A stretch of 64,000 nucleotides of DNA, from positions 5,120,001 to 5,184,000 of the forward strand of contig OY970067.1 in NCBI GenBank assembly GCA_963705305.1, read 5' to 3'. Source of the DNA: an uncultured Methylomirabilota bacterium. Lineage in GTDB: Bacteria > Methylomirabilota > Methylomirabilia > Methylomirabilales > 2-02-FULL-66-22. A model generated the notes under the pieces. That model saw nothing but the letters and a program-made list of their open reading frames with translations, had not been told where the DNA came from and did not search any database. Positions 46,744-53,179 of the stretch are shown here, piece after piece (within the stretch, counting starts at the first letter, position 1; each line of letters starts with the position of its first letter). The position numbers and the translations under genes are program-made.

Positions 46744-47752
46744 CTAGGCCTGCAGGCCGTACCGCGAGAGCGCGGCCCCGACGATCTCGCAGATCGTCTC
46801 GGGGTGGGTGCGGCCCGAGGCGCGGGCCCCGCGGATGAAATCGGCCGTCGTGTGCAGGTACGGGTTCGGATTGGCCTCGATCAGATAGACCTTGTGGTCC
46901 TCGGTGATGCGGAAGTCGAAGCGGGCATAGTCCCGCAACTGGAGCGCCTGGAAGCTGGTGACGGCGGCGTTCTGCGCCGCCTCCACGATATCGGCGGGCA
47001 GATCCTCGGGGATCCGGTACTTGCTCCCCCGATAGGCGCGCGTCCCCTCATACCACTTCACCTCGGTCCCGGCGATCCGGGGGGTGCCTTCGGGGAGGTG
47101 GGACAGATCCAGCTCGACCAGGGGAAAAGCTTTGGCGTCGGCGTTGCCCAGGACCCCGATGTAAACTTCCCGCCCATCGATGTACTGCTCGATCAGCACC
47201 GGATTGTCGAAATCGGCGTGCAGCTGATCGATCCGCTCCATGAGAATCCTTGATGCTCTCCACCAGCGCGCTGAAGCCGATCCCGATTGAGCCGTCCTCC
47301 CGCCCCGGCTTGACGATCACCGGAAAGTCGATGTCGTGCGCCCAGTCCAGCCGGCCCCGGAAGACGGTGACGAACTTCGGCGTCAGGATGCCGTGGAACT
47401 GCAGGACCTTCTTGGTCAGGGCCTTGTCCATGGCCAGGGACAGGCCGCGCGGTCCCGACCCCGTGTACCGCAGCCCCAGCAACTCGTAGTAGGCGGCCAC
47501 GTACGGTTCCTTGGTGTCGTCGTCCCCGAAGGATTCCACCAGGTTGAACAGGATGTCCGCCTGCACGTCCCGCATCCGGGCGAGACAGTCCTTGGTTCCG
47601 TCCACGACTACCGAGAACACCTCGTGGCCGGCGCGCTCCAGGACCTCGCGAATCTGCTGGACATCCGTCCGCCGGCGCCGCCGCCGCCCGGTCGCCTCGG
47701 CGGCGGGAGCCTCTTCAGGGGTGTGGGCGATCCCGATTCGCAGCGTCGCCAT
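46744..47752 (-). CDS. D-Ala-D-Ala ligase-like ATP-grasp protein; frameshift near 47245
   Basis: LLGLRYTGSGP, AMDKALTK, VIVKP..EDGSIGI (ORF 47048); EQYIDGRE, DYARFDFR, IEANPNP (ORF 46744); removing one T (GATTCTC to GATCTC) joins them. Confidence 0.88.
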
Positions 47753-48824
47753 GACTCTCCTCTCCCGCGGGGCGGGGGGAAGGTTTCGGAGGCCGGCGCA
47801 TGGGCGTCCGGGCCCGCGGGACGAAGCTCCCCCGCGTCAGGTAATTCATGGTCAGGGTCGTGGTGTACGCGGTCAATTCCAGGAGGACGGTGCACTCTCT
47901 GCGGATCTCCACGTGCAGCTGCATCCGCTCCGCCGCCTGCTCGATGCTGTCCACAAGGGCCCGGACCGCGCTCCGGCGGACGCCGGTCCAGTACTCCACC
48001 TTGCCGATGAGCTCCATCCGGTAATCCCGGACCATCTCCCAGGCGGGGCGGATGCCGCGCTTCCGGCGGCCCTTTCGAATGAAGAAATCCGGCAGGTCGT
48101 TCTCCAGGGCCACGTCCACCGGGGTCACCTCCCCCTGGTTGGCCCGGAAGAACTCCTCCACGGTCATGTCCATCTCCGCCACCGTGATGTCGGTGGAGGC
48201 GAGCCGGACCGGCGGCTCCTGGTCGGCCACCGCCCGGGCGATCCGGTGCACGTAGCGCAGCTTGCGCAGCGCCGGCCAGCCCCGGTAGCGCACGCGCCAG
48301 CGCGAACCGGGTGTGAGCCAGACGGCGAACGTCTCGGCGAAGTCGTCGTCCGGATGCTTCTGGGCATACCACCCCTCGATATGCCGGACGAAGTTCCGAT
48401 CGAAGGGGACGGGCCGATAGCGGTCGCGGTAGGGGCGGTTGAAGGGGCCGAACAGCTCGCGCCATTCCGGCGTCTCGTAGATCTTGTAGGCGTAATTGAA
48501 GGCGTGGCCGGCCTCGTGGCGCAGGTACATGCGGATCTCCCGCTCATCCTCGAGGTCGTCGATCTCCTTCTCCAGGCGGGCCAGATCGGCGTCTGCCAAG
48601 TAGAACGGGATCCCGATGATCGGCTCCCCTGACGGACAGCCCCACTCGTCCGTCAGGTAGCACGGCGGCCGAAAATGCTTGAGGCCCTTCCGCTCGATCT
48701 CGCGGTAGAGCTTCTGCACGTACCGCTCGACTGGCGACCCTTCAAGCTTGAGTCCGAGCTGGCTGATACGCTGGGAGAGGAGAGGCCGCAGGCTTGGCAA
48801 GGTGCTCTCAAATGTCCGCATCAT
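47715..48824 (-). CDS. Putative zinc-binding metallopeptidase (Peptidase_Mx-like)
   Basis: IPFYL, RHEAGH (HExxH), YAQKHPDDDFAETFAVWL. Confidence 0.85.
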   Translation of the reverse strand: MMRTFESTLPSLRPLLSQRISQLGLKLEGSPVERYVQKLYREIERKGLKHFRPPCYLTDEWGCPSGEPIIGIPFYLADADLARLEKEIDDLEDEREIRMYLRHEAGHAFNYAYKIYETPEWRELFGPFNRPYRDRYRPVPFDRNFVRHIEGWYAQKHPDDDFAETFAVWLTPGSRWRVRYRGWPALRKLRYVHRIARAVADQEPPVRLASTDITVAEMDMTVEEFFRANQGEVTPVDVALENDLPDFFIRKGRRKRGIRPAWEMVRDYRMELIGKVEYWTGVRRSAVRALVDSIEQAAERMQLHVEIRRECTVLLELTAYTTTLTMNYLTRGSFVPRARTPMRRPPKPSPRPAGEESHGDAANRDRPHP

Positions 48825-49120
48825 CTCTATAATGCCATGCCCGCGCCGTCATTTCAATGCCTGCATCCATTTGTTCCGATCACGACCCGGGGGTCGCGAC
48901 GATTCGGCCGAAAAGCCGGCTCTTGCACCTGCGCGGGCCTGGTCTTTCGTCGCAGCGGAGCTGCCAGGACTCGGCCCTTCTTGGTGCGATCCATGTCCGG
49001 TGCCGGGTACCGAGTCGTGCGTCTCCGCATCGTTAGGTTTCGAAACATGTCGCGATGCATCCTCTGCGGTCGGATTTGAGTGTTTTCCGAAATAGCTGTG
49101 CTCACAATAAGTTGCCGCGC

Positions 49121-49148
49121 TTGCAAAAGGGAATAAGCGATATATATT
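49121..49148 (+). promoter_or_regulatory. Putative sigma70 promoter
   Basis: TTGCAA-16nt-TATATT in an AT-rich patch ending just before the riboswitch. Confidence 0.55.
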
Positions 49149-49156
49149 AGTAGGTG

Positions 49157-49270
49157 AGAGGGGAGTAGATCTTTCCTCACTGGTCTGGTGGGTTCGTCAG
49201 CACGACCGTCATTGAAGCTGCGGTCCGGCTCACCAGACGCGGGGCGGAAGGCCCCAAGATCGAGACCTCT
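49157..49270 (+). ncRNA. yybP-ykoY (Mn2+) riboswitch aptamer
   Basis: AGAGG-GGAGTA-GATCTT ... TCGTCAGCACGA ... CCGG ... AAGATC-GAGA-CCTCT: P1/L1 and L3 signatures with pairing stems; TerC gene downstream. Confidence 0.88.
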
Positions 49271-49301
49271 TGCGTGGAGTGGCACGCAAGAGGTTTTTTT
49301 T
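49266..49301 (+). terminator. Intrinsic terminator overlapping riboswitch P1 (expression platform)
   Basis: CCTCTTGCGTG-GAGTGG-CACGCAAGAGG followed by T8. Confidence 0.9.
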
Positions 49302-49386
49302 ATCCCCCGATGCCATGACGACCTCCGGCAGGCCCACGGGAGACTCGCAGCCCCACGCCGCTACCCCACGCGGAGAGGAGGGAAAG

Positions 49387-49803
49387 ATGCCCGTCCTTGA
49401 CAGTGTGGGAGAGATTTCCGGCCGCTTGCAGGGCAATGCCTGCAGCCATACCAGGGGCCAGATCGAGGCTGAGATCAGCAAGGCCATTATCCGATTTGAC
49501 TGCCAGCACCTGGGACGGGGCCCGGCGGACGTCCGGACGCGGATCGTGCAGGACATGATCATCGTCCGCTCCATCGACGTCCTGACCCCCTCCGAGCACG
49601 CCCTGATCAAGGTGGGGAGCGTGGAGCTGGTGAAGCAGGTGCGGTCGAAGCTCTACGAGAGTCACCGGGAGGAGCTGATCCGAACTCTCCGCAACCTGAC
49701 CGGATGCGAGATCATCAGCATGCACCGCGACCTCAGCACGCGGACGGGGGAGCGGTTGATTGTGTTCGTCACGCGTGAGAATGTGGAGGCGCTATTCCGG
49801 TGA
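49387..49803 (+). CDS. DUF2294 / MpsC-family protein, copy 1
   Basis: TRGQIEAEISKAIIRF..LGRGP..VLTPSE..LVKQVR..LTGCEIISMH.DLSTRTGER.IVF; GAGGAGG RBS. Confidence 0.88.
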   Translation: MPVLDSVGEISGRLQGNACSHTRGQIEAEISKAIIRFDCQHLGRGPADVRTRIVQDMIIVRSIDVLTPSEHALIKVGSVELVKQVRSKLYESHREELIRTLRNLTGCEIISMHRDLSTRTGERLIVFVTRENVEALFR

Positions 49804-49848
49804 GAGGCGAACGACCCACGGGCGATCTTCTTTCCTGGCCGTTTCCGC

Positions 49849-49877
49849 TTGACAGGAAGGCAGGTCTGCCTGATTCT
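49849..49877 (+). promoter_or_regulatory. Possible internal sigma70 promoter
   Basis: Perfect TTGACA, 17 nt, weak -10 GATTCT, about 35 nt before the repeated leader. Confidence 0.4.
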
Positions 49878-49913
49878 TAAGTTGAGTGGGCTAGCTAGCT
49901 GGCTACCAAAGAC

Positions 49914-50011
49914 CGGCGGACGAGACGAAGGGTAGCCCTCGCGGGGCGACCAGCAGTAGCGTAGGCCGGCACGGGGATATGAAGGAATCCCTGTGCCGGC
50001 CTATGTTTTTT
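49914..50011 (+). ncRNA. Unrecognised structured leader plus terminator, copy A (riboswitch candidate)
   Basis: CGGCGGACGAGACGAAGGGTA-hairpin-GGGCGACCAGCAGTAGCGTAGGCCGGCA running into a 17-bp stem and T tract. Confidence 0.7.
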
Positions 50012-50192
50012 CTCGGGCCCGCATGTTTCGGCAAGGTGGAGGCGACCCAGGTACACTACGGCTCGAATCCGGACGGGGACGGAAGGGCGGAGAGGACAAG
50101 CATCGACTTTTCCCGGGGAGCGAAACAGGAGCGAACTGGAGCATCACGGGGATCCGCGTTTCAGCACGAGACCTGGAAAGGGGGTGGCAGAG

Positions 50193-50606
50193 ATGCCCGC
50201 TCTTGGCAGCGTGGGAGAGGTGACCGGTCGAGTGAAAGGCGCCGTGTCTTCCCGAACGAAGGGGCAGATCGAGGCCGAGGTCAGCAAGGCGATCATCCGG
50301 TTTGACCGCGAGCACTGGGGACGGGGCCCGGCGGACGTTCGGACGCGGATCGTGCAGGACATGGTCATCGTCCGCTCCATCGACGTCCTGACCCCCTCCG
50401 AGCACACGCTGGTCAAGACCGGGAGCGTGGATCTGGTGAAACAGGTCCGATCTAAACTGTACGAGAGCCACCAAGCGGAGCTTTACCGGATGCTTCGCGG
50501 GCTGACCGGCTGCGAGGTCATCAGCATGCATAGCGACCTCAGCACGCGGACCGGGGAGCGCTTCATCGTGTTCATCCTGGGCGAGAATCTGGAGCAGCGC
50601 ATGTAG
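50193..50606 (+). CDS. DUF2294 / MpsC-family protein, copy 2
   Basis: Roughly three-quarters identical by eye to 49387..49803. Confidence 0.88.
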   Translation: MPALGSVGEVTGRVKGAVSSRTKGQIEAEVSKAIIRFDREHWGRGPADVRTRIVQDMVIVRSIDVLTPSEHTLVKTGSVDLVKQVRSKLYESHQAELYRMLRGLTGCEVISMHSDLSTRTGERFIVFILGENLEQRM

Positions 50607-50639
50607 CGGCGCGCGAGCAGCGACACGGTCCGGACGACA

Positions 50640-50738
50640 CGGCGGACGAGACGAAGGGTAACCCCGGCGGGCGACCAGCAGTAGCGTAGGCCGGCAGAGG
50701 GATCACACTGGGATTCCTGTGCCGGCCTTTCGTTTCTT
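50640..50738 (+). ncRNA. Unrecognised structured leader plus terminator, copy B (riboswitch candidate)
   Basis: Same 21-nt and 28-nt blocks as copy A, different hairpin loops, stem followed by TTTCGTTTCTT; directly upstream of terC. Confidence 0.7.
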
Positions 50739-50794
50739 GGGATCCACAGACGCGGGGGCAATGGTGATGGGAATCTGATCCGAGGAGGTGAGAC

Positions 50795-51832
50795 GTGGAC
50801 GCGCACTGGTTGTGGCTGGTGTTCGGCGTCGTTGTGCTGGCCATGCTGACGTTCGACATCGTGGTGTTCTGCCGAAGACCGCGCGTCCTGCCCCTCCGCC
50901 AGGCATTTCTCTGGAGCATGGCCTGGGTCTCCTTGGCCCTCATCTTCGCCGGGTCCGTATACGTCGTGGAGGGGCCCAATAAGGGACTGGAGTTCGTCAC
51001 CGGCTACCTGATCGAGTGGTCCCTGAGCATGGACAATCTGTTCGTGTTCCTGGTGATCTTCACCTATTTTGCCGTTCCCCAGATGTACATGCACCGCGTA
51101 CTCTTCTGGGGGATCATGCTGGCGGTGATCCTGCGGGGGTGCTTCATCGCCGCCGGGCTGACGCTCCTCGCCTACTTCCACTGGATCATGTACGTCTTCG
51201 GGGCTTTCCTGATCTTCACAGGCCTCAAGCTCTTGCGGCAGGGGGACGAGCACGTGGAGCCGGCGAGGAATCCGGTCCTCCGTCTGTTTCGCCGGTTCTT
51301 TGCGGTGACGCCCGACTATCACCAGCAGAATTTCTTCGTCAAGCTCAACGGGCACTGGCTGGCGACCCCCCTGACCCCGGTGTTCATCGTGATCGGCACC
51401 ACGGATATCATGTTCGCGGTGGACTCCATCCCGGCCATCTTCGCCATCACGCGGGACCCGTTCATTGTGTACACCTCCAACGTGTTTGCCGTCCTCGGCC
51501 TGCGGGGGCTGTTCTTCCTGCTGTCGGGGATCATGGGGCTCTTCCGCTTCTTCAAATACGGCCTTTCGGTCGTGTTGATGTTCGTCGGCGTCAAGATGCT
51601 GGTGGCGGACTACTATCACATCACCTCCGGGGTGTCCCTGGCGGCCGTTGTTTCGATTCTGGGCGCGTCGATCCTGATCTCCATCATCTTTCCCGAGCGT
51701 CCGGAGCCGGCACCTGCGCCCCTCGCCTGCTCGGAGGCCGATGCTTCCGTCGAAGAGACGGGCGAGGGTCGCGGCTGGACCGAGGCGAAGGACCGGGGTG
51801 CGGTCGGCGCGCGATCGCACACGGCCCGATGA
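50795..51832 (+). CDS. terC: TerC/Alx family membrane protein
   Basis: FVTGYLIEWSLSMDNLFVF, HRVLFWGI, ATPL, DIMFAVDSIPAIFAIT.DPFIVYTSNVFAVLGLR; GAGGAGG RBS. Confidence 0.93.
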   Translation: MDAHWLWLVFGVVVLAMLTFDIVVFCRRPRVLPLRQAFLWSMAWVSLALIFAGSVYVVEGPNKGLEFVTGYLIEWSLSMDNLFVFLVIFTYFAVPQMYMHRVLFWGIMLAVILRGCFIAAGLTLLAYFHWIMYVFGAFLIFTGLKLLRQGDEHVEPARNPVLRLFRRFFAVTPDYHQQNFFVKLNGHWLATPLTPVFIVIGTTDIMFAVDSIPAIFAITRDPFIVYTSNVFAVLGLRGLFFLLSGIMGLFRFFKYGLSVVLMFVGVKMLVADYYHITSGVSLAAVVSILGASILISIIFPERPEPAPAPLACSEADASVEETGEGRGWTEAKDRGAVGARSHTAR

Positions 51833-51894: not shown

Positions 51895-52797
51895 ATGCGT
51901 ATCGTGCTGGGTGTTGACGGATCGGAGGGGGCGCGCTGGGCGACGGAGGTCATCCTCGCGCTGCCTCTCCCGCCGCCGGTGGATGTGACTGCCGTCTCGG
52001 TGATCGATGTCCCGGAGCCGCCCTTCACTTCCCTGACGGGGCCGGCCCGCAAGGCTTATGCCGGGGCCGTTGCAACGATGCGGCGCGAGGCGGCGGAGGC
52101 GGCGGCGGCGGCGCTGGGAAAGACCAGGGATCATTTGCACGGGCGTGTCTCCAGCCTCACGACCCAGGTCAAGACAGGCCGCCCCGCAACCGTCCTCTGC
52201 GATACGGCCAAGACGCTGGCAGCCGACCTCTTGGTGGTGGGCTCGCGCGGGTTGGGCCCGGTAAAGGGGATGCTGCTGGGCAGCGTCTCGCACGAGGCTG
52301 TTCGCTCTGCCCCCTGCTCCGTCCTGGTGGCCCGCGGCCCGGTGATCGATGTGCAGCGGGTGCTGCTGGGCGTGGACGGCTCCGTCCACAGCGAGGCGGG
52401 GGCGAAGTTCCTGGCGGGCCTGTCTTTTTCCCCGCAGGCCACCATTCATCTCTGCGCGGTGGCGGAGCAGCCCATCTTTGGCCCCGGGCACACGCCGAAG
52501 ACCCCGGAGGAACTGGCAGAAGCGCTGCGGACGATCGAGAAGGTGGCACGGGCGGGGGCTGAGCGGGTGCTGGCGGACACGCAGGCGCTGCTGGGCACCA
52601 ATGGTTGCAGCATCGTCCCTTCTCTGCGCTCCGGCCACCCGGTGGATCACCTGCTGGCGGCCATCCGGGAGTCCCGCCCTGATATCGCCGTCGTCGGCGC
52701 CAAGGGGCGCACGGCCGGAAAGGAGCATCCGTTGGGGAGTGTGACGCTCATGGTCCTCAAGTACGCCTCGTGCTCCGTGCTTGTGGTCCGATCGTAA
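51895..52797 (+). CDS. Universal stress protein, tandem Usp domains
   Basis: IVLGVDGS..DLLVVGSRG..LLGSVS..APCSVLV repeated twice. Confidence 0.93.
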   Translation: MRIVLGVDGSEGARWATEVILALPLPPPVDVTAVSVIDVPEPPFTSLTGPARKAYAGAVATMRREAAEAAAAALGKTRDHLHGRVSSLTTQVKTGRPATVLCDTAKTLAADLLVVGSRGLGPVKGMLLGSVSHEAVRSAPCSVLVARGPVIDVQRVLLGVDGSVHSEAGAKFLAGLSFSPQATIHLCAVAEQPIFGPGHTPKTPEELAEALRTIEKVARAGAERVLADTQALLGTNGCSIVPSLRSGHPVDHLLAAIRESRPDIAVVGAKGRTAGKEHPLGSVTLMVLKYASCSVLVVRS

Positions 52798-52891: not shown

Positions 52892-53179
52892 ATGATGTTC
52901 GTCACGCGCGCCGAAAAGGAAAGGCCGCCTGCCAGCTTTCAGCTCGGCTGGTTTCGATGCGAGGCCTGCAACAAGGTGAAGCCATTGTCGCAGCGACAAT
53001 GGCGCTCGCCCTTCGAGCGGGGGTTCGGCGTGTGCCGCGGGTGCTACGAGACCTGGGAGCGGCTCGGCCGCCGCTGTCCACGCTGCTGGAGGCAAGTCGG
53101 CCGCGACGAGGCACTGGCCTTCCATATCGATCGGAGCACGTTCGGCCACTTCCTGTGCGGCGGCGCCCTGCTCGCCTGA
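52892..53179 (+). CDS. Small Cys-rich putative zinc-binding protein
   Basis: AAAGGAGA RBS; CEAC, CRGC, CPRC, HFLC. Confidence 0.65.
   Translation: MMFVTRAEKERPPASFQLGWFRCEACNKVKPLSQRQWRSPFERGFGVCRGCYETWERLGRRCPRCWRQVGRDEALAFHIDRSTFGHFLCGGALLA

Follow-up and report, generated by a model that had tools for sequence, protein, structure and literature searches.

The 64,000-nucleotide (nt) window analysed here, a stretch of contig OY970067.1 of an uncultured Methylomirabilota bacterium, carries two copies of a hairpin-forming leader RNA. Each copy runs into an intrinsic terminator, the first ahead of mpsC2, the second of two genes for DUF2294 (MpsC) proteins, and the second ahead of a terC/alx-type gene. 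The question raised by this locus is what kind of element the repeated RNA is, and what sets its state. A preliminary description of the DNA had proposed a candidate ion-sensing riboswitch of the ON type. A conserved and structured leader, mutual exclusion of its basal helix P1 and the terminator, an ON-switch anatomy and an uncatalogued sequence uphold part of that proposal. Its choice of effector does not stand in the same way, given that the motif is found only beside DUF2294 genes and the effector could equally be a protein. Each copy is probably a cis-acting, ON-type antiterminator/terminator switch of an uncatalogued leader-RNA family.

Two copies of one element

Two blocks are repeated without a mismatch at the places first reported, one of 21 nt at 49914-49934 and 50640-50660, and one of 28 nt at 49944-49971 and 50669-50696. 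Each occurs exactly twice in the window and is absent from all of 100 shuffles. The identity of the copies (21 of 21 positions in the 5' block and 28 of 28 in the 3' block) ends with the blocks: 6 of 10 positions agree in the apical part, 13 of 20 on the loop side of the terminator and 24 of 110 in the spacer, which bears out the differences noted earlier in the apical hairpin, terminator loop and flanks. The coding DNA of mpsC1 and mpsC2 is identical at 336 of 417 positions (80.6%) and the proteins at 76% of residues, or 78% over 115 core residues, in agreement with the divergence of about a quarter estimated by eye. In the whole genome, a single contig of 5.65 Mb, BLAST returned seven places, namely the two full-length copies and five fragments of 14-28 nt with E of at least 0.17. 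The covariance model R3 described below has exactly two matches in this genome, which has exactly two DUF2294 genes. With two copies only, both on the same strand, the element is not a dispersed repeat.

A rod with covarying helices

The minimum-energy fold of the hairpin alone is a rod. In copy 1, P1 (49913-17/49965-69) is followed by a GG/AG loop, P1b (49920-22/49960-62), an AG/AG loop, P2 (49925-28/49954-57), a further AG/AG loop and P3 (49931-33/49949-51 and 49935-38/49944-47). P2, a helix of 4 base pairs (bp), is degenerate in the window copies, with only two Watson-Crick pairs. The stems first picked out by eye (CGGC/GCCG, ACG/CGT, GGT/ACC and CCC/GGG) are those of this fold and of the helices supported by covariation.

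Covariation was assessed in 28 copies at 18 loci; 13 genomes contribute 22 of the copies and metagenome contigs the other six. Model R3 contains 20 pairs and no branch point, that is, a single unbranched hairpin. In an alignment that was fitted to the model and holds related sequences, so that the figures are generous, 91.2% of the cells of the modelled pairs are paired, against 24-47% with the partners slid, and double (compensatory) changes occur in 14 of the 20 pairs; the observed values were reached by none of 500 shuffles. Pair 24-74 is C-G in 14 copies and U-A in 14, and pair 16-82 is G-C in nine, A-U in eight and C-G in six. G-U pairs are confined to the gene-strand reading of the alignment. 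The helices are regarded as secure because of the slid-partner controls and the many pair types.

From the base upwards, the consensus consists of P1 (GGC/GCC), an RG/AG loop, a 3-bp helix and an NG/AR loop, followed in the inner half by a 4-bp helix with an invariant C-G pair, an AG/AG loop, GGY/RCC, an A/G mismatch and a variable tip. Four short helices are separated in this way by purine-purine 2x2 loops of the AG/AG type, in a hairpin of about 60-80 nt; with the terminator, the element measures about 110 nt. The unpaired purines are nearly invariant (G15 in 28 of 28 copies, G9 in 27, A83 and G69 in 26 each), and the 3' strand presents three AG dinucleotides 5-6 nt apart, at columns 77-78, 83-84 and 88-89. 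A comparison of the flanks of related loci showed no conserved junction or pseudoknot partner.

This conservation, with compensatory changes, spans eight genera and single-copy loci. It has to be set against an account of the repeat in which there is no switch and a duplicated gene-end terminator has been kept alike by gene conversion in a tandem mpsC repeat. Five loci have the tandem arrangement of the window, and in three of them paralogous MpsC proteins within a genome resemble each other more closely (78% in the window, 71% in G006 and 79% in G014) than orthologues do (58-72%), as such an account would have it. In the other two, both from metagenomes, orthologues pair instead (c1-c1 80%, c2-c2 87%). 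The tandem mpsC comparison covered the window and loci L008, L057, L046 and L049. These values suggest that gene conversion has acted, or that the unit of mpsC and switch was duplicated repeatedly, in three of the five tandem loci, and gene conversion may contribute to the perfect identity of the blocks in the window. It explains neither the conservation of the blocks far above the adjacent DNA (100% identity, against 80.6% in the coding sequence and about 22% in the spacer) nor the conservation across genera. Terminators alone would need no conserved upstream competitor, and an element devoid of switching is highly improbable.

Hairpin and terminator compete for one strand

The 3' strands of P1b and P1 of copy 1 lie inside the 5' arm of terminator 1, and P1 of copy 2 has its 3' strand in common with terminator 2. 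When the fold is given 40 more bases, the structure of minimum energy is the 20-bp terminator, which takes the 3' strands of both basal helices; full-length folds likewise favour the terminator and break P1 and P1b. The proposal that the closing GCCG doubles as the 5' arm of a terminator with a T run, and that the two structures exclude each other, is thus borne out by the folds. A hairpin and U run, with a 5' arm that contains the 3' strand of P1 (starting at AGGCC), follows 26 of the 28 copies; one of the remaining two is cut by the contig end and the other is directly followed by a second copy. The element has two of the general features of a riboswitch, an expression platform mutually exclusive with the sensor helix and a covarying 5' leader RNA.

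A -35 box of the TTGAC type is found no more than 90 nt upstream of 20 of the 28 copies. The eight copies without one are five intercistronic second copies and three that stand second in tandem. A TTGACA-N17 box with a -10 element of TATCGT or TATGGT occupies the same place in four other tandem-type loci and in three single-copy loci. In the window, the promoter-like site of the second unit was not listed by the consensus scan, its -10 element matching only three of six bases, and terminator 2 was not listed by the strict scan, its T tract being interrupted.

Promoter and terminator together might also mark a small RNA gene, with a stand-alone transcript of about 110-130 nt acting in trans, e.g., by titrating MpsC or pairing with mRNAs. 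All 20 copies with a promoter box of their own also have a terminator, and the OFF state of a switch necessarily releases such a short RNA. Nonetheless, eight copies, copy 2 of the window among them, lack a promoter and are embedded in longer leaders or intercistronic spacers. A gene on the same strand follows wherever the contig continues, and a stable small RNA of two hairpins would have no use for a P1 that is conserved in sharing its strand with the foot of the terminator. A small RNA gene is very unlikely on these grounds.

In the cis-acting switch that we favour, the rod hairpin would form first and act as an antiterminator, its basal P1 using a strand of the foot of a strong intrinsic terminator. 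Unaided, the terminator would win, and transcription would stop before mpsC2 at copy 1 and before terC at copy 2. Were the rod locked, no terminator would form beside the U tract and RNA polymerase would read through, as in an ON switch. This logic, in which hairpin competes with terminator and OFF is the default, is well supported.

Comparison with known RNA families

None of the 4227 families of Rfam 15 has a match at the gathering threshold in the 64-kb window. At E <= 10, the region 48800-51000 and the 131 nt around copy 1 gave only noise from microRNA, small nucleolar RNA and small RNA hairpins on the terminators, and seven related loci gave no match at E <= 0.1. That the RNA could not be placed in a recognised class is confirmed by the empty scan at gathering. 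Its tentative assignment to a variant of the Rfam terC motif is not supported, since no Rfam family scores in the window or in the seven loci. The yybP-ykoY model RF00080 (45 bits required) matches neither copy even at E <= 10, and in the whole genome it gave one unrelated match of 13.6 bits elsewhere. A search of the literature returned no paper joining any two of MpsC, YbcI, riboswitch candidates and Methylomirabilota; DUF2294 was named in one unrelated paper.

The least probable of the explanations considered is that the motif has diverged from a class already described (yybP-ykoY Mn2+, Na+-I, Li+-I/II or the Rfam terC motif). This would accommodate terC/alx, a textbook target of yybP-ykoY whose NCBIfam model bears the name R_switched_Alx, and the strings AGUAG and GAGAC, which in the window copies are reminiscent of yybP-ykoY. 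In other subtypes of the motif, these strings are replaced by a plain 4-bp helix. The yybP-ykoY class has a four-way junction with two docked internal loops, whereas the motif is unbranched and lacks such a junction. The published accounts of Na+-I (the DUF1646 motif) and Li+-I (nhaA-I) describe RNAs of two stems, P1 and P2, in which conserved nucleotides occupy the foot of the first stem and the loop of the second (PMC9337991, PMC9646797). The motif is one rod rather than two stems, and neither class has an Rfam match here; nor do the Rfam 15 models of Li+-II (nhaA-II) and of the terC motif.

The likeness to the transcriptional ON riboswitches for ions (Na+-I, Li+-I/II and Mn2+) lies in a leader aptamer whose P1 competes with a terminator, in tandem arrangements and in cation-transporter targets, including TerC/Alx. 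Unlike the motif, those classes are not bound to one neighbouring protein gene.

Distribution and linkage to mpsC

Among 61 related genomes, BLAST recovered the same tandem arrangement in G006 and G014. A degenerate pattern matched four of 251 genomes of the phylum and its reversed control none; the fourth of these genomes, G144, has only one copy, which is diverged and shows compensatory changes. Two tandem and two single-copy loci came from a metagenome scan. Three of the nine loci of that scan (L042, L045 and L050) were set aside as chance matches inside a long opposite-strand open reading frame (ORF) with multihaem-cytochrome-like CxxCH motifs. In all five tandem loci, the order is leader 1, mpsC, promoter, motif, mpsC, motif, terC.

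A search with the MpsC protein found canonical mpsC in 13 of the 251 genomes. PF10057 is found in 14, the additional genome (G003) having one distant match of 46.6 bits in a frame of 345 amino acids. All 13 genomes with canonical mpsC carry the motif, in 22 copies. A first model, R1, made from six near-identical copies and run with default filters, had missed the diverged copies, its search of the phylum finding only G144; with filters off, diverged copies were found at every one of 10 further mpsC loci. In 66 genomes of the order, R3 has matches only in the six with mpsC, apart from one of 33 bits in G020, and in a sample of 151 genomes of the class it finds the 11 mpsC genomes contained there and the same G020 match. 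Searched whole, the 10 other mpsC genomes gave 16 matches, all on contigs with an mpsC gene or gene end (contig C55 of G144 has a gene end). R3 was run on 153 of the 251 phylum genomes, and for the remaining 98 coverage came from the strict pattern alone, with G028 counted as one negative. The G020 match and the weak matches L039 and L040 were rejected as coding-like sequence with neither promoter box nor terminator.

All 22 genome copies lie within 8-260 nt of a DUF2294 gene. Eighteen start 8-217 nt past the mpsC stop codon on the same strand, and four sit on the opposite strand, 209-256 nt upstream of mpsC. A rod with purine 2x2 loops and a terminator that shares P1 is thus found near PF10057 in 22 of 22 copies and in all 13 genomes. 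In at least nine loci, mpsC is either upstream of the motif's own promoter or divergent, and therefore outside the controlled unit, as expected of a regulator gene. Non-tandem loci have no comparable leader ahead of mpsC itself.

Genes behind the switch

The first gene behind the motif is canonical mpsC2 in five cases and terC/alx in five. Na_Ca_ex (CaCA) exchanger genes come first behind three scanned copies, a fourth such copy being cut by the contig end. A distant DUF2294 paralogue stands behind the motif in G049, G217 and G083, as scanned, and in G047 by likeness, and a truncated one in G129. ORFs for zinc-ribbon proteins, recognised by eye, follow it in G215, G104, G144 and two metagenome contigs, and a DksA/TraR zinc finger gene in G109. 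No NCBIfam name is assigned to any of the MpsC, CaCA, DabA-like or small proteins.

Two copies may share one leader. In G035 (locus L072), copies at 1104-1166 and 1205-1271 precede a DabA gene, and the first has no terminator of its own and a degenerate 3' strand. On the minus strand of locus L067 (G049), copies at 1164-1227 and 1341-1400 precede a single DUF2294 paralogue.

Further genes were seen on the same strand behind the switch-controlled ones, namely UPF0182 membrane-protein genes in G217 (L066 2-853, Pfam-scanned) and G104 (L070, by eye), and sigma-factor-like ORFs in G083, G129 and G215 (by eye). Control may thus extend beyond the first gene of a unit.

Similar architecture in Bacillota

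A tblastn search of a plasmid collection with MpsC returned three records. A plasmid of Anoxybacillus amylolyticus has, 135 nt behind DUF2294, a gene annotated as a sodium-dependent bicarbonate permease (the SbtA case); in Acetoanaerobium noterae, DUF2294 precedes a membrane-protein ORF. Both spacers (Table 1) form a rod hairpin whose purine loops are 2x2 or 3x3; in the longer fold, a strong terminator captures the basal helix (z-scores -8.0 and -5.5). The layout of hairpin and terminator is thus present in two of two Bacillota loci with a gene after DUF2294. R3 scores neither spacer, so that the likeness is one of architecture and not of sequence; the loop sequences differ, and one loop is replaced by a continuous 8-bp helix. 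The third record, a Staphylococcus plasmid, is uninformative, an annotated IS6 family transposase gene following DUF2294. The Anoxybacillus and Acetoanaerobium loci are possible experimental systems.

MpsC as the candidate effector

DUF2294 is favoured as the effector because the motif is found only beside this gene, because the gene is often outside the controlled unit and often has its own promoter, because the cargo is heterogeneous, and because the shape is kept while the loop sequences drift between phyla, which fits a co-evolving protein site. It is the likeliest factor to lock the rod, and we would put the chances of this role at about even. MpsC encoded alongside the motif would lock the rod in the manner of the ribonucleic antiterminator (RAT)/BglG systems or of HutP, perhaps in response to an inorganic-carbon, pH or cation signal.

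RAT hairpins are bound by the antiterminators BglG, SacY, LicT and GlcT, and their stabilisation gives read-through. Like the motif, they are imperfect, internally looped hairpins, and their 3' side is shared with the 5' arm of an intrinsic terminator; further likenesses are the presence of the effector gene at the locus (here, the candidate DUF2294) and the use of serial gates in one operon. In contrast to RAT, the motif hairpin is about twice as long and has three or four periodic purine loops. DUF2294 differs from the RAT effectors in having no PRD domains, and PF03123 (CAT_RBD) has no match in the genome of the window (98.9% complete), its control being positive in four of 14 genomes. With HutP and TRAP, the system would share a small, ligand-activated protein encoded just upstream of the terminator region, and the three spaced AG dinucleotides of the 3' strand are a further likeness. 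The AG-bearing strand lies here in a covarying helix rather than in single-stranded repeats; HutP is not among the listed fold matches of MpsC, and its family PF09021 has no match in the same genome, with a positive control in B. subtilis. For ANTAR (PF03861), neither the search of that genome nor its control, in 14 genomes, gave a match.

Several points weigh against MpsC as effector. The observation that the motif never occurs apart from DUF2294 comes, as far as the sequences go, from one phylum, with R3 run on 153 of its 251 genomes, and canonical mpsC is itself behind the switch in five loci. The invariant unpaired purines could equally form a pocket for a ligand or metal, rod-like riboswitch aptamers exist, and cargo rich in transporters (TerC, CaCA, DabA and SbtA) is typical of ion riboswitches. 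The predicted structure of MpsC, a confident one (predicted local distance difference test, pLDDT, 87.5), has no Foldseek match in the PDB at E <= 0.001, the best (E 0.0095) being TRAPP Bet3-like and H-NOX chains; its best Z in a VIA structural search is 7.2, which is background; and phmmer and profile searches against PDB sequences returned no relative. Nothing in these results marks MpsC as an RNA binder. In Staphylococcus aureus, the growth of a delta-mpsC strain was unaltered and complementation did not require the gene (PMC6689103), so that the Pfam name says little about the function of MpsC.

The main alternative is a true riboswitch, in which the rod itself would bind a ligand or ion (Na+, Li+, Ca2+, Mn2+ or bicarbonate/CO2), or fold in a pH-dependent way, so that P1 is stabilised, termination is prevented and DUF2294 is a mere habitual member of the regulon. 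This is a live alternative, though less likely than MpsC as effector. A covarying hairpin with near-invariant unpaired purines, and an expression platform that overlaps P1 in 26 of 28 copies, speak for it. TerC/Alx, the three Na_Ca_ex exchangers, DabA and the Anoxybacillus bicarbonate permease are suitable targets. The tandem copies of G049 and G035 and the two serial gates of the window also have parallels among known ion riboswitches (PMC9646797). Nonetheless, a riboswitch has no reason to adjoin a gene upstream of its own promoter, yet 22 of 22 genome copies do. Its targets would have to include DksA/TraR, the zinc-ribbon protein and the DUF2294 paralogues, which are not transporters, and the flanks offer no conserved junction or pseudoknot partner. 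Ligand pockets are usually the most conserved part of a riboswitch across phyla, and the loop sequences are lost in the two Bacillota examples.

Taken at its widest, the proposal of MpsC as effector would make DUF2294/MpsC a new family of signal-responsive, RNA-binding antiterminators with the rod as dedicated operator. The pair would be conserved from Methylomirabilota to Bacillota, and through it a signal of inorganic carbon, pH or cations would set the expression of TerC/Alx, CaCA exchangers, DabA/SbtA-type inorganic-carbon transporters and genes of the stress response. We advance this tentatively, as somewhat less than an even prospect. If it is true, a Pfam family named for a sodium pump that it does not serve gains a function, the S. 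aureus work having found the domain dispensable for MpsAB. The short list of terminator-based switches would be joined by a new antiterminator/RNA pair or else by a new riboswitch class. Either way, the locus points to a circuit, so far unstudied, that would control TerC/Alx, Ca2+/cation exchangers and the uptake of inorganic carbon by DabA/SbtA, and that cultivable Bacillota would share with uncultured bacteria of the Methylomirabilota type.

Organisation of the locus

The features of the locus are collected in Table 1.

Table 1. Positions of the features of the mpsC-terC locus in the window and of the two Bacillota look-alikes
Feature	Position	Strand	Basis
Promoter-like site, first transcription unit, TTGCAA-16-TATATT	49121..49148	+	Consensus match only
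Leader 1, a different structured leader with its own terminator (49262-49297)	49155..49301	+	Outside the motif family
mpsC1, DUF2294, 138 amino acids	49387..49803	+	PF10057, E 9.4e-35
Promoter-like site, second unit: TTGACA (49849-49854), 17 nt, GATTCT (49872-49877)	49849..49877	+	Read from the sequence
Motif copy 1, rod hairpin	49913..49969	+	Fold, model matches of 78.4 and 72.9 bits, covariation
Terminator 1, intrinsic: 20-bp stem, loop of 8, T run 50007-50012	49959..50012	+	
mpsC2, DUF2294, 137 amino acids from ATG; GTG start at 50184 in the ORF list	50193..50606	+	PF10057, E 1.5e-36
Motif copy 2, intercistronic; P1 of 4 bp (50640-43/50690-93)	50640..50693	+	Fold, model match
Terminator 2: stem 50689-50727, then TTTCGTTTCTT	50689..50738	+	Fold
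terC/alx-type membrane protein gene, behind copy 2	50795..51832	+	PF03741 TerC, E 2e-47; TIGR03718 TerC/Alx
Double Usp protein gene, after terC	51895..52797	+	PF00582
Small Cys-rich zinc-ribbon-like ORF, 95 amino acids, ending the terC-usp run	52892..53179	+	
AT-rich switch look-alike, Anoxybacillus amylolyticus plasmid	L097 4382-4516		
AT-rich switch look-alike, Acetoanaerobium noterae	L098 4365-4480		

The identification of the downstream genes as DUF2294 and terC in the preliminary description agrees with the PF10057 and PF03741 matches; against TIGR03718, the terC product scores 389 bits (cut-off 246). Copy 2 begins after a 33-nt spacer behind the mpsC2 stop codon, and the spacer contains no promoter box. 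The product of the small ORF at the end of the terC-usp run shares 44% identity (E 4e-21) with that of the ORF directly behind the motif in G144 and has a weak DUF6510 hint in Pfam (E 0.0087, below cut-off).

Leader 1, ahead of mpsC1, had been described as an adjacent yybP switch. It is a conserved leader with a terminator, kept in all five tandem-type loci, and its consensus folds as a three-way junction that includes a purine-rich internal loop and in which six of 31 pairs show double changes. It carries strings reminiscent of yybP-ykoY; searches with RF00080 of the window, of a relative and of the whole genome gave no match to it, and the yybP assignment is not upheld. Leader 1 may be an uncatalogued variant or a separate class. 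In the proposed circuit, it would gate mpsC1, and MpsC1 and MpsC2 would open two successive gates, in a feed-forward sequence of mpsC2 and then terC-usp.

Elsewhere in the window, the minus strand of 46744-47752 carries two overlapping ORFs (47048-47752 and 46744-47241) that appear by eye to be halves of one ATP-grasp-type enzyme; their different frames may reflect a frameshift or a sequencing error.

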